DNA of 19,780 bases from Promethearchaeota archaeon (GTDB taxonomy: Archaea; Asgardarchaeota; Lokiarchaeia; Sigyniarchaeales; SOKP01). A model generated the notes under the pieces. That model saw nothing but the letters and a program-made list of their open reading frames with translations, was not told the origin of the DNA and did not search any database. Each line of letters opens with the position of its first letter. Within the stretch, counting starts at the first letter, position 1. Both the position numbers and the translations under genes were made by a program. Positions 159-18,891 of this stretch are shown piece after piece. The DNA lies in the NCBI GenBank assembly GCA_048938025.1, contig JBHLMP010000007.1:1-19780 (forward strand), given 5' to 3'.

Positions 159-232
159 GGGAGGGTAGTCTAGCTTGGTATGATTCTTGGTTTGGGACCA
201 AGGGGTCGGGGGTTCGAATCCCCCCTCTCCCA
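159..232 (+). tRNA. tRNA-Pro (anticodon TGG), no intron, CCA not encoded
   Basis: Acceptor stem GGGAGGG(159-165)/CTCTCCC(225-231), discriminator A232. D arm contains AGCTTGGT. Anticodon stem CTTGG/CCAAG with loop TTTGGGA (TGG at 193-195). T arm is GGGGG-TTCGAAT-CCCCC. It is a GC-rich island in AT-rich DNA. Confidence 0.96.
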
Positions 233-988: not shown

Positions 989-1471
989 ATTTCTGAAAAA
1001 GAAAGTGATACAGAGAAAAACCTCTCTGAAGATTTTAAAATTACTGATGAGAAAATAAAGAGAAATTATTATATATCTCTTATAATGGTTATCATTATGC
1101 CAATAGTTGCTGTTCTCTTCCTTAGTCCTTTATCTTCCGCTATCTTTGGATCTCTTAGTCTTTTTATACTTCCTATAGGAAGTATAATCATAATTGGAAT
1201 TTATAGATCATATCTAAAAAAGATGAGCGGAGAAACAAATAGAAATAAAGGGATAGTAGGAATAGTAAATGGGATAATTATTCTCAGTATAGGATTATCG
1301 TGGATTTACTTTTTTTTAATGATAATGATAGATACTTCTTGGCGGGGAACTGCTTGGGGTGTTGAATATGGTATTCTAATTTTAGGAATTATTTTTATTT
1401 TAATTGGATTAGTTATAACTCCTTACGGTATAATTGGTATTTATAAATCAATTCATGAAAGGAGAACTTAA
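989..1471 (+). CDS. Hypothetical multi-pass membrane protein (about 4 TM helices), probably starting at ATT 989 rather than ATG 1085
   Basis: Four long Ile/Gly/Leu-rich hydrophobic stretches. The frame is open back to TAA at 974-976. AGGTGG (977-982) lies 6 nt before ATT-TCT-GAA-AAA. The ATG at 1085 falls inside the first hydrophobic segment. Confidence 0.7.
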   Translation: MSEKESDTEKNLSEDFKITDEKIKRNYYISLIMVIIMPIVAVLFLSPLSSAIFGSLSLFILPIGSIIIIGIYRSYLKKMSGETNRNKGIVGIVNGIIILSIGLSWIYFFLMIMIDTSWRGTAWGVEYGILILGIIFILIGLVITPYGIIGIYKSIHERRT

Positions 1472-1719: not shown

Positions 1720-2784
1720 TTATTTATTTAAAGATTTCTTCAGTTCTTTTATTATCAGATCAGTTTTTTTATCTTTTATCCAATATCTTATTTTCGAGGA
1801 TTGTAGGAATTTTTGGACTTTTTCATTTAGTTCATTTAATTTTTTTCGATCTTCATCAGAAAGCTGAGGGATTTCTTCTTCTATTTTTTCTTTTACTTTT
1901 TTAACCTCTTCTTCAATAATAGGAATTTCTATTTGTTCTTTTCCATGAATAAGTCGTTTTCTTAAGATTTCTTTAATACCTTTTATCCACCCTTGGATCC
2001 ATGGAAAATTACCTTGTTTCTTTGGATCAATTATATCAATGTTTTTTCTAGCAACAATTATTAAATCATCAGGACAAGAATTTTCACATGCTCCGCAATA
2101 AAAGCATTCATCCTCATTACAAGCAATTTTTCCATATTTTTTTACATCTGCGGCACTTTCTGGGATAAAGAAAGATTCAGTAGGACATATATTCACACAT
2201 GCTTTACATCCCTGTGGATCACATTTATAAAGCATATTTTTTTTAATAATTACTTCTCCTTTAATAGGAGAATCAATATGAAAACATTGAGTTGGACATT
2301 CTTTTTCAATTCTATAGTAATCCTGAATGTTATTTCTAGTTCTAACATTTAAACATAGAATACATATCTCGTTTTTTTTATCCTCTATACATTTCTTTTT
2401 GTCAATATTAAAAAAATTTCCAATTGAAGGATATTCATCCATATCTATTTGCCCTTCAGGTTCAATAGATTCATGAAAAGCGTCATTTGGACATACTATT
2501 GCACATAACATACAATAACAACATTTATCATAATCTATTAAAATTTTAGGATTACTCTCATCTAAAATATTTTGGGCAATTTCAGGAATAGGTCCAAGTT
2601 CAATTGCATCAACAGGGCATACTAATTTGCATAAACTGCATCCAATACATTTTTTTATATCATATATAAGTTTTTTATTAACTTCTTTAAATTTCCAATT
2701 AAGAATGAGTTGTTCTGGAGTGATCTCGATATTTTTATTTATTTGTTCCTCTTGAGTTTCTTCTTCGGGAGACGTTTTTGAAAT
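1720..2784 (-). CDS. Polyferredoxin, FwdF-like 4Fe-4S protein (354 aa with the N-terminal extension)
   Basis: Motifs CIGCSLCKLVCP and CCYCMLCAIVCP (wholly or partly upstream of the track's ATG 2511), CDPQGCKACVNICP, CFYCGACENSCP and one degenerate central Cys cluster. The layout resembles formylmethanofuran dehydrogenase subunit F. The frame is open to TGA at 2791-2793. Confidence 0.85.
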   Translation of the reverse strand: MSKTSPEEETQEEQINKNIEITPEQLILNWKFKEVNKKLIYDIKKCIGCSLCKLVCPVDAIELGPIPEIAQNILDESNPKILIDYDKCCYCMLCAIVCPNDAFHESIEPEGQIDMDEYPSIGNFFNIDKKKCIEDKKNEICILCLNVRTRNNIQDYYRIEKECPTQCFHIDSPIKGEVIIKKNMLYKCDPQGCKACVNICPTESFFIPESAADVKKYGKIACNEDECFYCGACENSCPDDLIIVARKNIDIIDPKKQGNFPWIQGWIKGIKEILRKRLIHGKEQIEIPIIEEEVKKVKEKIEEEIPQLSDEDRKKLNELNEKVQKFLQSSKIRYWIKDKKTDLIIKELKKSLNK

Positions 2785-2881
2785 TTTTATTCAACCATTC
2801 ATTCCATTTTTCGAATCTATTTAACCTAAATAGTGCTTTATAATTAATTTTAATGTGCTAAATATTTAAAAAGAAGTTTTA

Positions 2882-3382
2882 TTAAGAGTAATAAGAGTAG
2901 CTTTCTTTATCAAAACCATAAATATATTCAATAGAAATTCCATCAGGTTGAAGATCTAAAGGAGCATAAATTAACGGCAAGTTCGGAAAGTAGGTTCCGA
3001 TTCCTTTCTTTGCTAATATTATAGCAGGATGATCTACATCATTATAAATTTCTTCGCTAATTATTAATGTTATCGCTCTACATTGTTGTTCATCTAAGAT
3101 TCCTAAAGAGTGGACATATTCATGTAAAAGGATATGATATGTATAAGCCCAGACTATATCGTTAGGTTGTTCTTCTAAAATGATCTTTAAAGGAGTTTTA
3201 TTTATGAGTATTTCTGTACCAGGGTAAAAGTGCATCCCACCTATAAAACCTCCACGAAATATACCCATCTCAACTAATCCTAAACTTAATCCTGCTCGAT
3301 GGCGTCCATATATTTTTCTAACATCTTTTTTTACTTTTTCAAAAATTTCTGGCATTATTTTTTTAAAATCATGAAGATTCAT
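2882..3382 (-). CDS. Small zincin-like putative metallopeptidase (HExxH)
   Basis: LLHEYVHSLGILDE gives HExxHxxGxxxE. A GAGGT ribosome-binding motif precedes the ATG. Confidence 0.75.
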   Translation of the reverse strand: MNLHDFKKIMPEIFEKVKKDVRKIYGRHRAGLSLGLVEMGIFRGGFIGGMHFYPGTEILINKTPLKIILEEQPNDIVWAYTYHILLHEYVHSLGILDEQQCRAITLIISEEIYNDVDHPAIILAKKGIGTYFPNLPLIYAPLDLQPDGISIEYIYGFDKESYSYYS

Positions 3383-6569: not shown

Positions 6570-7181
6570 TTATTTACTTAGTTTCTTCACTTTTATATAT
6601 GCAATTCCATTATTTACATCTAACTCATAGTTTACCTTTAATGACTTAGAAGGAAGATTAATCTTTTTAAAATATTTCCGATTTTTATTTTGAGCGGTAA
6701 GCAATAATATTTTACCATCAGCACTAAAATCTATCTTAACATCTCCTTTTTCAATCCCTGGAACTTCAATTAGAATCTCAATATATTCTTTATCTTCATT
6801 AATCTCAGTATATGGTTCTAAAACATATATTTCTTCATCTTGCTTTAATGTCTCTAATGTAAGTTCACTCGCATCAATCTCTTTTTTAGAGTGTGAATCA
6901 AATAGTTTCTTTAACTTTGGATATTTATTCATATCCACATTTTTTAAGAAGTCCTTAATTTTTTCATCATCAATATTACCTTCAATTTTTATCTCAGGTT
7001 TATCCATACCTGTTTCAAAATGATATGATATCTTAAATCCGTACAATTTTTTATCATAAGGCTTTAATCCTAAATCAATATCTTCTTCTGGAATAAATAA
7101 AACATCTATATCAAAAATATCTGAATCTACCTTAAAAAGCTTCTTAATCTCATCAATAATATCATCAAAATCATCCTGCAC
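6570..7181 (-). CDS. hsp20: Archaeal small heat shock protein (Hsp20/alpha-crystallin)
   Basis: YGFKI...KPEIKIEGN N-terminal region and the alpha-crystallin domain EPYTEI...IEVPGIEKGDVKI...YFKKINLP...NNGIAYIKVKK. The start is moved to GTG at 7181 because the track's GTG (7190) is part of the AGGTGA ribosome-binding motif 5 nt upstream. Confidence 0.9.
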   Translation of the reverse strand: MQDDFDDIIDEIKKLFKVDSDIFDIDVLFIPEEDIDLGLKPYDKKLYGFKISYHFETGMDKPEIKIEGNIDDEKIKDFLKNVDMNKYPKLKKLFDSHSKKEIDASELTLETLKQDEEIYVLEPYTEINEDKEYIEILIEVPGIEKGDVKIDFSADGKILLLTAQNKNRKYFKKINLPSKSLKVNYELDVNNGIAYIKVKKLSK

Positions 7182-11569: not shown

Positions 11570-11849
11570 TTATAATTAAAATGTGAAAAAATCAAAAAAG
11601 AAAATTTCGCAACTGTATATTATTCTTTTGAATTCTTTTGCAATATTTGTTCTATAACTTTAAGATCTTTTAATTTATCAATGAAGAAGTCTTTTAATAA
11701 AGTATATATATTCATTTTTAGCATTATATATAAAGAACATGCTTTAAATAGCTGAAAGCTTTAAAAAAGTAGTAATCCATTATTTTATTCAAATAATATT
11801 AACAACTTGTATTGTAGTCAAAAAATAATTTTAGAAAGAAGTGAATATT

Positions 11850-12974
11850 ATGTCAAAAGCAGAAAAATTGCCCAAAGAATGTATAGAGTATATGACTCCA
11901 ATGGAAAGGATAACGGGTCTTTTATTACGAAAAAAACTGGATAGAGTTCCGTGCTTTCCATTCGTTTCAGCAGCAGCAGCTCAGCTTAGACGGTTAAACT
12001 ATGGAGAATATGCTACAAAACCAGATTTATTCTTAAGATGTCAAATAGAAGCTCAACAGCTTATTGGGTATGATGGTATTACAGCAATGCCAGATCTTTG
12101 CGTTGAGGCTCAAGGTTTTGGAGCAAAAATCATATATCCCCCAGATAACGCGGGTTATCCAGATCCTTATAATCCAGTTCTTAAATCTCCAGATGATTAT
12201 AAAAACATAGGTAAATTATTTGATTGGTCCCATGCTGACAGGATGAAAAATCAAATAAGAGTAGTTAAAACCATAAAGGAGGAATTACCTGATTTAATGA
12301 TAGGAGGGATGACAATAGGTCCATTAGGATTGATAAGCCGGCTTCGTAATATTAATGAACTCGTCCGAGATTTCACGTATCATAAAGACAAGCTCCATGA
12401 AGCTCAAGAAATTGTAACCGATATTCAAATAGAATATATTGAAAAACAAATTGAGGCAGGAGCTCGAACAATCATGGTTCCTGTAGTTTTAGCCGAAAGA
12501 GAACTTATGAGTAAGGAAATGTGGTTAGAATTGGATATGCCTTATCAAAAGAAGATTGCCAATTTTGTGAGAAAAAAACGAGTTTTTTATATGGTTCATA
12601 CTTGTGGTAGAGGTCCCTATTTTGATCTGTTAATTGAACATCTTCGACCAGTTCTTATTCAAAATGCATACTTACCTGATGGTATAAAAACTGAACAGGA
12701 AATGGTTGAAAAATATGGGAAGAAATTAATATTTTTAGGATTTTTAAGCGTTTCATTACTTGCATGGGCACATCCTTATGAAGTTATAGCGGAATGTAAA
12801 AGGCAACTTGAAGTTTTCGGAAAGTCACCCGCAGGTTATATTCTTGGAGCGTCTTGTGAATATCCACCCTATGCACCCTTATATAATGCGATGGCTGTTG
12901 TTAAAGCTGCTAGGACATATGGTAAAAATTTTCAAACTGGTAAGGGAGCCAATTATGAAGAAGAAGGAGGTTAA
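11850..12974 (+). CDS. MtaA/CmuA-type methyltransferase (uroporphyrinogen decarboxylase family)
   Basis: MTPMER...DRVPCFP, DLCVEAQGFGA, GPLG, and Zn ligands HTCG plus GASCEYP. It is adjacent to a corrinoid protein. The start is set at ATG 11850, 5 nt after AAGTGA. Confidence 0.88.
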   Translation: MSKAEKLPKECIEYMTPMERITGLLLRKKLDRVPCFPFVSAAAAQLRRLNYGEYATKPDLFLRCQIEAQQLIGYDGITAMPDLCVEAQGFGAKIIYPPDNAGYPDPYNPVLKSPDDYKNIGKLFDWSHADRMKNQIRVVKTIKEELPDLMIGGMTIGPLGLISRLRNINELVRDFTYHKDKLHEAQEIVTDIQIEYIEKQIEAGARTIMVPVVLAERELMSKEMWLELDMPYQKKIANFVRKKRVFYMVHTCGRGPYFDLLIEHLRPVLIQNAYLPDGIKTEQEMVEKYGKKLIFLGFLSVSLLAWAHPYEVIAECKRQLEVFGKSPAGYILGASCEYPPYAPLYNAMAVVKAARTYGKNFQTGKGANYEEEGG

Positions 12975-12979
12975 AAGCT

Positions 12980-13627
12980 ATGTCAGATGAAGAAATTTTA
13001 AAGAAGCTTAAGGAAAGTGTTCTAGATTTTGATGAAGAGACTGCTAAAGAAGCTGCTAAGGAAGCAATAAAGGCTGGAATTGACCCATTAAAAGCAATAA
13101 AGGAGGGACTATACTTGGGCTTAAAAGAAATTGCAGATCACTATGAAGACACTTTCTTTATAACAGATATGATAATAGCTTCAGATGTATTCTATGCGGG
13201 TGCGAATATTTTAAAATCTAAAATAGATCCAGAAAAAGCTAAAACAGATAGTAAAGGAACAGCTGTTATTGGCGTTGTGAAAGGAGATATTCATGATCTT
13301 GGCAAGAACATGGTGAAATACCTATTTGAAGCTGAAGGTTTCAAAATTATTGATCTGGGATTTGATGTTCCTGCTGAGAAATTTGTTGAAGAGGCAGAGA
13401 AAAACAATGCAGATTTTATCTTAATTTCGTTAATGCTAAGCTCAAGGTTTCCTGAAATCGGAAAAATCGTTAATTTAGCTAAAGAAAAAAAGTTACAAGC
13501 AAATGGAGTGAAAATTATGGCTGGTGGGGGCCCCGTTTCAGAAAAAATAGCCTATGAACAAGGTGCTGATGGATGGGCACTCACAGCGCCTTTAGCGGTT
13601 AAAAAAGCTTTAGATTTGCTTAAATAA
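12980..13627 (+). CDS. Corrinoid (cobalamin-binding) methyl-carrier protein, MtaC/MtbC-like
   Basis: N-terminal cap domain, B12 motif GDIHDLGKN (DxHxxG), IDLGFDVP, MAGGGP and GADGW. GGAGGT ribosome-binding site, 5 nt after the upstream stop. Confidence 0.93.
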   Translation: MSDEEILKKLKESVLDFDEETAKEAAKEAIKAGIDPLKAIKEGLYLGLKEIADHYEDTFFITDMIIASDVFYAGANILKSKIDPEKAKTDSKGTAVIGVVKGDIHDLGKNMVKYLFEAEGFKIIDLGFDVPAEKFVEEAEKNNADFILISLMLSSRFPEIGKIVNLAKEKKLQANGVKIMAGGGPVSEKIAYEQGADGWALTAPLAVKKALDLLK

Positions 13628-17266: not shown

Positions 17267-18205
17267 TTAATTTGAACTTTTAATTACTGCCTCTAGCTTT
17301 GGAAAGATTCGAGGATAATGAACTGCCATACAATGGATTCCGCTAAGTAAATTCTTTCTTCTTAATTCTGTAATAAAGGGCTTAAAGAACTCATAATTTG
17401 CTTGATCATAAACCTCATTTTGCATTTTTTTGTCAGTAGAATATTCTGTTTTTATCGATTTCCATTTTGCTAGGATGTCCTTTGGAACAGAAACACCCGG
17501 AACGAATGTATCGAAACCTTTTGCAATTCCATAACTTTTCATAGGAAAAATTCCTAAGAGAACAGGAACTTTATATTTTCCTATTTCAGTTAAAAATTCA
17601 ATGGTTCGATCCAAATCATAAACTACTTGTGTTTGTAAAAATTCAGTACCTGCTTCAGCTTTGCGTCCAATTTTCAAGATTTCTGCTTCCATTGGTTCTG
17701 CATTCGGATTCGCTGCTGCCCCTACATGAAGAGTTGGTGGAGATTCAATTTCATGACCATTAATCTTACCAGTATCGACCATTTCTCTAACTATCTTTAC
17801 TAAAGTAGCGGAATCTAAATCAAAAACAGGTTTGGTTTCAGGCATATCACCTAATGCTGGGTGGTCGCCAGTTAATGAAAGGATGTTCCTTAATCCTAAA
17901 GCATGTCCACCCATAATCATACCAGCAATTCCAAGTTTATTAACATCTCGTACGGTTAATTGCCAAATAACTTCTAAATTTGCTTCTTTTTGAATAATAT
18001 GTGAAGCAGCCATACTATTAATTGTTACGATCCCAAGAGGACTATCTGTCACATTGGCAGCAATAACATAAGGTGCCATATCTTTTGCCTCTTGGATTGT
18101 ATGAGAAAGATCACATGTTTTTTCAGGTTCAAGTTCACCTGTGAGTATGAATTCACCATTTGCAAGTGCTTCTCCTAATTTTGAATATATTTTTGTCTCA
18201 GTCAT
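17267..18205 (-). CDS. metF: 5,10-methylenetetrahydrofolate reductase, MetF subunit
   Basis: GELEPEK, ANVTDSP, QLTVRDVN, NILSLTGD, KPVFDLDS, AGTEFLQTQVVYD and GIHCM motifs. The GGAGGT ribosome-binding site overlaps the metV TAG. Confidence 0.93.
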   Translation of the reverse strand: MTETKIYSKLGEALANGEFILTGELEPEKTCDLSHTIQEAKDMAPYVIAANVTDSPLGIVTINSMAASHIIQKEANLEVIWQLTVRDVNKLGIAGMIMGGHALGLRNILSLTGDHPALGDMPETKPVFDLDSATLVKIVREMVDTGKINGHEIESPPTLHVGAAANPNAEPMEAEILKIGRKAEAGTEFLQTQVVYDLDRTIEFLTEIGKYKVPVLLGIFPMKSYGIAKGFDTFVPGVSVPKDILAKWKSIKTEYSTDKKMQNEVYDQANYEFFKPFITELRRKNLLSGIHCMAVHYPRIFPKLEAVIKSSN

Positions 18206-18219
18206 TCTTTACATACCTC

Positions 18220-18891
18220 CTATCTAAATACAACTTCTTGTTGATGTCCACTTTCAGACCAATCTCTAGCATCACGTAGTTGACTAAATAGATCTAATCT
18301 ACCAATTGCTTTCAAGCGATTAAAAATTAAAACCCAACCGCAATCTTTTTCATAATTACCGACTTCACATTTACCATCAACCATACCACCACAAGGACCG
18401 TTCATGAGACCTTTAGCGCAGGTTGCAATAGGACAAATTCCACCTGTATAATTTAAATAACAATCACCACAGGCTCTACATCGCATATAAAACCTACCGA
18501 TTCTCTCAGTCATACCAATAAATTTTGTGTTATTGGAGACAAGAACTGGTTTTTTTGGATATTTGTTCTCTAGCACCTTTACTATACTCTGAACCCCTAA
18601 TCCACAACTAAGGGTTAAGATTGCTTCAGATTCTTGAATTTCGTCATCAATTTTGCGAAGATCCTTTTTCATAACTCGATTATCACATACATCCTCAGAA
18701 ACTATAACAGCAGTAACCTCATATCCTTTTTCTACTAAAAGGTCATTCCATTCTTTTGCACCTTCTGTCCCTCCAGTTTGACAAAGAGCAGCACAAGTAC
18801 CACAACTTACAATAGCTAATTTCTTGATTTTATAATTTTCCAACGCTTCGATTACTTCTTCAGTTGGTTTTTTTGTTGTTATAACAACCAT
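18220..18891 (-). CDS. metV: Methylene-THF reductase Fe-S/Zn subunit MetV (MTHFR C-terminal-domain family)
   Basis: CGTCAALCQTGG, SCGLGVQ and CRACGDCYLNYTGGICPIATCAKGLMNGPCGG..CEV..CGW. It lies directly upstream of metF. Confidence 0.92.
   Translation of the reverse strand: MVVITTKKPTEEVIEALENYKIKKLAIVSCGTCAALCQTGGTEGAKEWNDLLVEKGYEVTAVIVSEDVCDNRVMKKDLRKIDDEIQESEAILTLSCGLGVQSIVKVLENKYPKKPVLVSNNTKFIGMTERIGRFYMRCRACGDCYLNYTGGICPIATCAKGLMNGPCGGMVDGKCEVGNYEKDCGWVLIFNRLKAIGRLDLFSQLRDARDWSESGHQQEVVFR

Follow-up and report, generated by a model that had tools for sequence, protein, structure and literature searches.

The window, i.e., the whole stretch of 19,780 nucleotides that was analyzed, represents contig C67 of a 3.5-Mb genome assembly of an uncultured Loki-type archaeon, consisting of 88 contigs (26-34% G+C). 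On its minus strand it harbors a reading frame (2790..1720) which directly follows a TGA stop codon at 2793-2791, begins with ATA AAA ATT (2784-2782) TCA AAA and remains open to a TAA at 1722-1720. An initial annotation had assigned this frame to a polyferredoxin and had proposed that translation initiates at the ATT codon. The features on which this proposal was built were all found as described (Table 1): No in-frame ATG, GTG or TTG occurs over the 93 codons following the TGA, the first ATG (2511-2509) encodes the methionine of KCCYC-M-LCAIVCP and lies inside the second Fe-S motif, a complete motif is encoded ahead of any canonical start, and an SD-like sequence, GGTTGA, precedes the ATT by 6 nt. 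Also the two sites used for comparison, GGAGGTTA-AAAGCT-ATG-TCA at 12980 and AGGTGA-AAACT-GTG at 7181, were given correctly. Two further features had been overlooked, an in-frame ATG (2802) AAT GGT ahead of the TGA, which forms a mini-ORF of three codons, and a TTG within GGTTGA (2794), which is out of frame and reaches a stop after 19 codons.

Table 1. Positions of features of the polyferredoxin gene within the window
Feature	Position	Strand	Basis or remark
ATT, proposed translation start (Met from initiator tRNA)	2782..2784	-	ATT/ATC in 21/21 genus orthologues
GGTTGA, weak Shine-Dalgarno-like site	2791..2796	-	overlaps in-frame TGA 2791-2793
Spacer ATAAAA, 6 nt	2785-2790	-	between SD-like site and ATT
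Re-called CDS (proposed), 354 aa + stop, FwdF-like polyferredoxin	1720..2784	-	Pfam, PDB match, dN/dS
First cluster motif CIGCSLCKLVCP	2614..2649	-	Pfam Fer4; upstream of any canonical start
Second cluster motif CCYCMLCAIVCP	2488..2523	-	contains first ATG 2511-2509, used by ORF listing and public calls
Mini-ORF ATG AAT GGT TGA, in frame	2791..2802	-	also in L003
TTTAAATA, possible TATA box	2863..2870	-	read from sequence; in 97-nt gap after upstream gene

The gene is neighbored by those for an ArsR-type regulator, a 166-aa protein and Cdc48, and the arrangement of ArsR-like regulator, 166-aa protein and polyferredoxin is conserved within the genus. The gap between the genes for the 166-aa protein and the polyferredoxin (window 2785-2881) comprises 97 nt in both the window and the sister genome, and several hundred to about 800 nt in most congeners (L004-L022). 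If the possible TATA box within this gap is real, the mRNA would possess a leader carrying the SD-like site. A query for RNA data covering 2300-3300 listed none. In addition, the window contains a tRNA-Pro (TGG) gene at 159-232 (+), a URO-D-type methyltransferase gene beside that of a B12-binding corrinoid protein at 11841-13627 (+), and genes for MTHFR and its C-terminal-domain partner at 17267-18891 (minus); methyl-transfer and C1 genes are co-located in this stretch.

The polyferredoxin possesses five cysteine-rich motifs, of which four end in CP. Its C-terminal tail, about 110 aa long, is rich in Lys and Glu. A Pfam analysis of the stop-to-stop frame (P0001) identified a Fer4 domain at aa 43-64 and a Fer4_7 dicluster domain at aa 47-104, the latter spanning the position of ATG 2511. 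The best PDB match (E 6.6e-31) begins to align near the N-terminus, and the alignments with solved FwdF structures begin at query residue 34. Therefore, the protein must start upstream of 2511. The structures of FwdF, the polyferredoxin subunit of tungsten formylmethanofuran dehydrogenase (5T5I chain F and 9SW6 chain H), share with the window protein the tandem ferredoxin-like domains with CxxCxxCxxxCP motifs but not the Lys/Glu-rich tail. However, the score against the FwdF family NF042909 (NCBIfam) was 129.2 bits and, thus, stayed below the curated cut-off of 375, and no Fwd match occurred among the other window ORFs scanned, i.e., the locus does not display the neighborhood of a formylmethanofuran dehydrogenase.

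The initial annotation had proposed to determine which codon occupies the ATT position in related genomes. To this end, 40 relatives were searched, which resulted in 21 evaluable loci of the genus, counting the genome of the window and L022; two genomes with matches cut by contig ends and two without an orthologue-level match were left out. The aligned codon was ATT (18) or ATC (3) in all 21 orthologues and never ATA, a count that overstates independence as the orthologues share ancestry. In each case the codon was located 45-48 codons ahead of the first Cys motif and was followed by a codon for Ser, Thr or Pro. Purine-rich SD-like sites (GGAGGA, GAGGG, GGTGAGGG, GGTGA-type or similar) occurred about 4-10 bases upstream, and those at the equivalent place in the orthologues are stronger than the GGTTGA of the window. 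Eleven of the 21 orthologues lacked any in-frame ATG, GTG or TTG from the upstream stop to the first cluster motif, and in seven a stop codon was positioned 2-4 codons before the ATT or ATC. In L005, L006, L009, L012 and L022 a canonical codon is present 2-5 codons upstream, where it forms part of the SD-like motif itself, and L020 has an ATG three codons downstream; in these 6 of 21 orthologues the nearby canonical codon may be the start. Four orthologues from three other families (L023-L026; 35-43% identity) possess an in-frame ATG just before the conserved N-terminal region, which in L023 is preceded by GAGGAG and 6 nt. Considering the ATT or ATC present throughout the genus, ATT is, thus, a derived state that became fixed in this genus.

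The choice of the codon was compared with that at other isoleucines. The polyferredoxin has 36 other conserved Ile columns, in which 374 of 732 codons were ATT, 237 ATA and 121 ATC, and none of these columns consisted of ATT only. When the start columns of three genes were pooled, ATT was counted 56 times, ATC 5 times and ATA not once; among 62 other conserved Ile columns ATA made up 426 of 1227 codons (35%), none was ATT-only and five were free of ATA. By this comparison, the start codon is conserved beyond the amino-acid requirement. Codons 2-91 yielded dN/dS values of 0.09-0.20 in seven orthologue pairs, compared to 0.04-0.12 in the remaining codons, and dS was near or above 1 for most of these pairs. 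As the synonymous sites approach saturation while dN/dS of the leader remains low, the ATT codon has been retained over saturating divergence and the startless part is likely translated; judged from these ratios, the stretch downstream of the ATT is under purifying selection. Taken together, these data support the AUU initiation put forward earlier, which we regard as highly probable, and indicate with similar likelihood that the product of the gene is an FwdF-like polyferredoxin of 354 aa translated from the AUU at 2784-2782. As a caveat, GGTTGA is an imperfect SD sequence and failed the filter for strong SD sites in the genome-wide scan described below.

Several other modes of starting the protein were considered. 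Initiation could occur at another in-frame near-cognate codon, since both ATA 2790-2788 and ACG 2775-2773 fall into this group and ATA opens other ORFs of this genome. However, ATA 2790-2788 directly abuts the SD-like site with zero spacer, it is absent from the conserved start column, and in L007, L008 and L014 only AAG or AAA is found between the stop and the ATT or ATC, whereas the ACG, which lacks conservation, is separated from the SD-like site by 15 nt. A start at either codon is therefore very unlikely. Alternatively, translation may begin exclusively at the internal ATG 2511, as chosen by the ORF listing and by public gene calls (P0096), which would result in a 263-aa protein minus the first cluster and would render the upstream frame the decaying remnant of a truncated or start-loss pseudogene. 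Yet this ATG splits both a CxxCxxCxxxCP motif and the Fer4_7 dicluster domain, the upstream 90 codons evolve under constraint like the rest of the gene, and the upstream frame is open in 21 genomes, in which the first canonical codon is located anywhere between codons 4 and 95. The decay of the gene after loss of its start, which the initial annotation had named as an outcome that would overturn its proposal, is thus at odds with the purifying selection on the startless part, and we consider a sole start at 2511 highly improbable.

A further possibility is that translation starts at ATG 2802 and proceeds by readthrough or recoding of TGA 2793, or that re-initiation is coupled to the three-codon mini-ORF. 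Both the window and L003 contain the in-frame ATG AAT GGT TGA, and L007 and L008 exhibit other short upstream ORFs that end in TAA just before the ATT. Against this, the intervening stops vary across the orthologues (TGA, TAA, TAG), with two in tandem in L014, most orthologues are devoid of any upstream start (e.g., L004, L015, L017, L019, L021), and the long conserved ORFs of the window end normally. The variable stops, the double stop in L014 and the scarcity of upstream starts make readthrough from an upstream ATG unlikely; a conserved upstream start combined with one conserved recodable stop, as expected for recoding, was not found among the orthologues. As the mini-ORF is not conserved among the orthologues, it is probably incidental, and the chance that it takes part in starting the polyferredoxin, by either route, appears very slim.

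With respect to sequence accuracy, contigs from two other studies (run X4 record 14; X5 records 20 and 21) bridge positions 2730-2895 and retain the ATT. Among the best-supported differences listed (depth 4-11), none affected 2782-2784 or 2788-2793 and none was an indel; the only nearby differences listed were 2785 T>C (AAA to AAG) and 2775/2776. The sister genome, which was assembled independently (L003, 94% protein identity), likewise reads TGA ATA AAG ATT. The assembly error that the initial annotation had raised as a threat to its own reading is therefore contradicted by the contigs of other studies and by the sister genome, and although the region is rich in homopolymers and one base fewer would bring the TTG of GGTTGA (2794) into frame, a canonical start hidden by a start-codon substitution or an indel in an A-run has a negligible probability given the contigs without a listed indel, the same frame in L003 and the recurrence of non-canonical starts across 21 assemblies.

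The genome was also scanned for further SD-led near-cognate starts, a check which the initial annotation had proposed and which gave a positive outcome. The start-site profile of this genome displays GGTGA at -11..-7, and the 16S 3' end of a congener (G023) reads ...GGATCACCTCC, a canonical tail; the 16S 3' end is absent from the present assembly, and G006 gave no SSU match. All strong SD 5-mers were considered with an aligned spacer of 5-7, a stop no more than 12 codons upstream and an ORF of at least 120 codons; for non-canonical codons, a lack of canonical codons for 25 codons was additionally required (Table 2).

Table 2. Codons behind strong SD sites in the genome-wide scan
Codon	Qualifying sites / all SD sites with that codon
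ATG	87/288
TTG	26/268
GTG	11/79
ATT	9/550
ATA	5/382
ATC	3/231
CTG	3/124
ACG	1/48
AAA	0/719
AAT	1/570
TAT	0/490
TTA	0/366
TTT	0/563

ATT, ATA and ATC jointly qualified at 17 of 1163 sites, compared to 10 of 9293 for 51 other sense codons (Fisher p 1.6e-10), and AT-only control codons at 1 of 2708. When the spacers were set out of register, the near-cognate signal fell, and the same was observed for ATG. The polyferredoxin itself does not count towards the 17, as its weak GGTTGA did not pass the strong-SD filter; the number is, therefore, a minimum. An upper guide is given by the 69 of 3124 non-shadowed ORFs that possess startless leaders of at least 40 codons, although some of these ORFs are spurious or contain N-runs. 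A Pfam analysis of 21 near-cognate candidates identified nine in which the domain begins before the first canonical codon, two were borderline, three uninformative and seven unmatched. The nine comprise a ferredoxin, the zinc ribbon of TFB, ThiF, an AFOR, an E2-like protein, GatB/E, a NiFe-hydrogenase-type small subunit, an ETF-ferredoxin fusion and a V-ATPase AC39 subunit. At the loci L027, L032, L036, L040, L044, L045 and L046 (G000) the candidate start codons are all positioned behind a strong SD, and the Pfam domain precedes the canonical start; the candidates are ATT for a ferredoxin and ThiF, ATA for the aldehyde ferredoxin oxidoreductase, ATC for the E2-like UQ_con protein, CTG for the hydrogenase small-subunit-like protein, CTG or ATA for the ETF-ferredoxin fusion and ACG for V-ATPase AC39.

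Three further genes were followed across relatives. For TFB (L030/L047, G000:C14:29692-30660 (+); orthologues L048-L065), the start column contained ATT (17) or ATC (2) in all 19 loci of the genus, within the context AGGTG, 6-7 nt, ATT/ATC and TCA, often with a stop in between. In the genome of the window, the first canonical codon corresponds to residue 76, and starting there would delete the zinc ribbon; in 8 of 18 loci a canonical codon occurs at the variable residue 7, and other families have an ATG nearby. For aIF1 (SUI1; L092/L093, G000:C24:2575-2913 (minus); orthologues L094-L122), ATT was found in all 22 genus loci evaluated, with one more locus (L115) not being evaluable. The layout in the genus is GGTTGTGA, a stop, two or three codons and then ATT AAA GA. 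None of the 22 has a canonical codon ahead of the zinc knuckle, and the first canonical codons are scattered over residues 22-87; in the alignment with the solved aIF1 of M. jannaschii, the matched region extends from residue 3 of that protein to a point immediately ahead of the knuckle. Whereas the second Ile codon of aIF1 varies between ATT, ATC and ATA, the first one is invariably ATT (22/22). At the equivalent position, seven loci from other families have ATA, GTG or TTG, and six of these lack an in-frame upstream ATG, L122 being the only one to have it. A different pattern was observed for GatB/E (L043/L072, G000:C27:30267-31727 (minus)), which has CTG where about 11 of 14 same-genus orthologues have TTG and single ones ATG or GTG. 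As the sister genome still has TTG, the comparison indicates that CTG is a recent, sporadic near-cognate substitution at the start. In all likelihood, the polyferredoxin, thus, belongs to a group of genes whose non-AUG starts are conserved throughout the genus.

How could an AUU be used? In the mechanism we propose as the simplest, the SD-like site would position the small ribosomal subunit over the AUU, and the ordinary initiator Met-tRNA (anticodon CAU) would pair with it despite the mismatch at the third base, so that Met would be the first residue of the polyferredoxin. A candidate for an initiator-type tRNA is located on G000:C55 near 10639 (+). It has A1, the anticodon CAU, an intron after position 37 and three G-C pairs (GGG/CCC) in the anticodon stem, and was missed by both ARAGORN and the Rfam scan. 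The tRNA inventories obtained by these tools (32 and 25, respectively) fall below a full set, probably due to introns. A motif search of the genome for an intron-less initiator anticodon arm returned T-loops only, and searches of this incompletely detected tRNA set yielded no special AUU initiator tRNA.

Starts of this kind have been described in bacteria, where infC (IF3) of E. coli (review PMC4705826) and ebpA of Enterococcus faecalis (PMC4447247) start at an SD-led AUU. These systems and the present case have in common an AUU placed by an SD, a normal initiator tRNA, a codon retained in evolution, a downstream ATG wrongly annotated as the start and an expected weaker expression. They differ in that the window belongs to an archaeon with aIF1/aIF2 in place of IF3, and in that the codon is fixed genus-wide in an ordinary redox protein. 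For archaea, reviews give AUG, GUG and UUG as starts (PMC7531240), and ribosome profiling in Haloferax identified about 30% near-cognate putative alternative sites, which were set aside (PMC7261190). Our literature search retrieved no systematic account of archaeal ATT starts and nothing on an AUU start of aIF1 or a corresponding loop; the single Asgard case it returned was anecdotal: An article of 2026 (PMC13394414) mentions a 'likely rare ATT start codon' for atubA, a tubulin gene from Kariarchaeaceae. As in the window, the deposited atubA protein is too short and an upstream ATT follows a ribosome-binding site with plausible spacing. In contrast to our data, this is a remark on a single gene made in the context of cloning, without conservation or genome-wide analysis, and it concerns a different Asgard lineage.

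The suggestion of the initial annotation that the weak codon could lower or regulate expression may be extended. Because of bacterial infC and the finding that Sulfolobus aIF1 rejects AUU (as stated in PMC4705826), we infer that initiation at the AUU would be weaker than at an AUG and that the output of the polyferredoxin would depend on aIF1. Autoregulation of a fidelity factor via its own weak start has been described for the infC AUU in bacteria (same review) and for the poor Kozak context of eIF1 in eukaryotes (PMC6237735), and an aIF1 gene with a conserved ATT provides the layout such putative feedback needs. As a tentative idea, which we regard as possible but rather doubtful, aIF1 made from its conserved AUU may form an infC-like feedback loop that determines how stringent initiation is in the cell and, thereby, how much is made from a fixed group of genes starting at AUU, TFB and the polyferredoxin among them; the AUU starts would then be a regulatory class and not annotation noise, and the polyferredoxin a co-regulated passenger. 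If true, aIF1 would be a third, independent fidelity factor gauging itself by a weak start, and this in the archaeal lineage to which eukaryotes are most closely related. The review PMC4705826 leaves open whether weak starts exert control in archaea, and since AUU is fixed on aIF1, TFB and redox genes within one genus, this question becomes testable.

As had been predicted, standard gene callers miss the ATT start, and public calls begin inside Fe-S motifs. P0096, a public call of 264 aa with 95% identity, begins at the ATG of the second motif, and of 120 public homologues, at least 26 have their annotated start within the conserved N-terminal region or the Fe-S motifs. The starts of the public calls (P0002-P0121) precede the first Cys motif by anything between 3 and 84 residues, and four calls (P0096, P0116, P0118 and P0121) begin inside or after it. 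Such scatter is to be expected from callers that search for the closest canonical codon. Callers limited to ATG, GTG and TTG would, thus, cut or shift the polyferredoxin, and we estimate that comparable mis-calls concern something like 1-2% of the genes of the genus, including those for TFB and aIF1. For Asgard archaea, such mis-calls have consequences for predicted structures, for expression constructs and for the counting of genes in pangenomes.

A second ATT candidate occurs in the window at 989-1471 (+), where AGGTGG and AAAAAG precede ATT TCT and a TAA is located four codons upstream. A Pfam scan of this candidate gave no match, and the only syntenic counterpart in the loci fetched was a weak one in L006. 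Used as a start, the ATT at 989 would add 32 residues to a membrane-protein ORF that was called at 1085.
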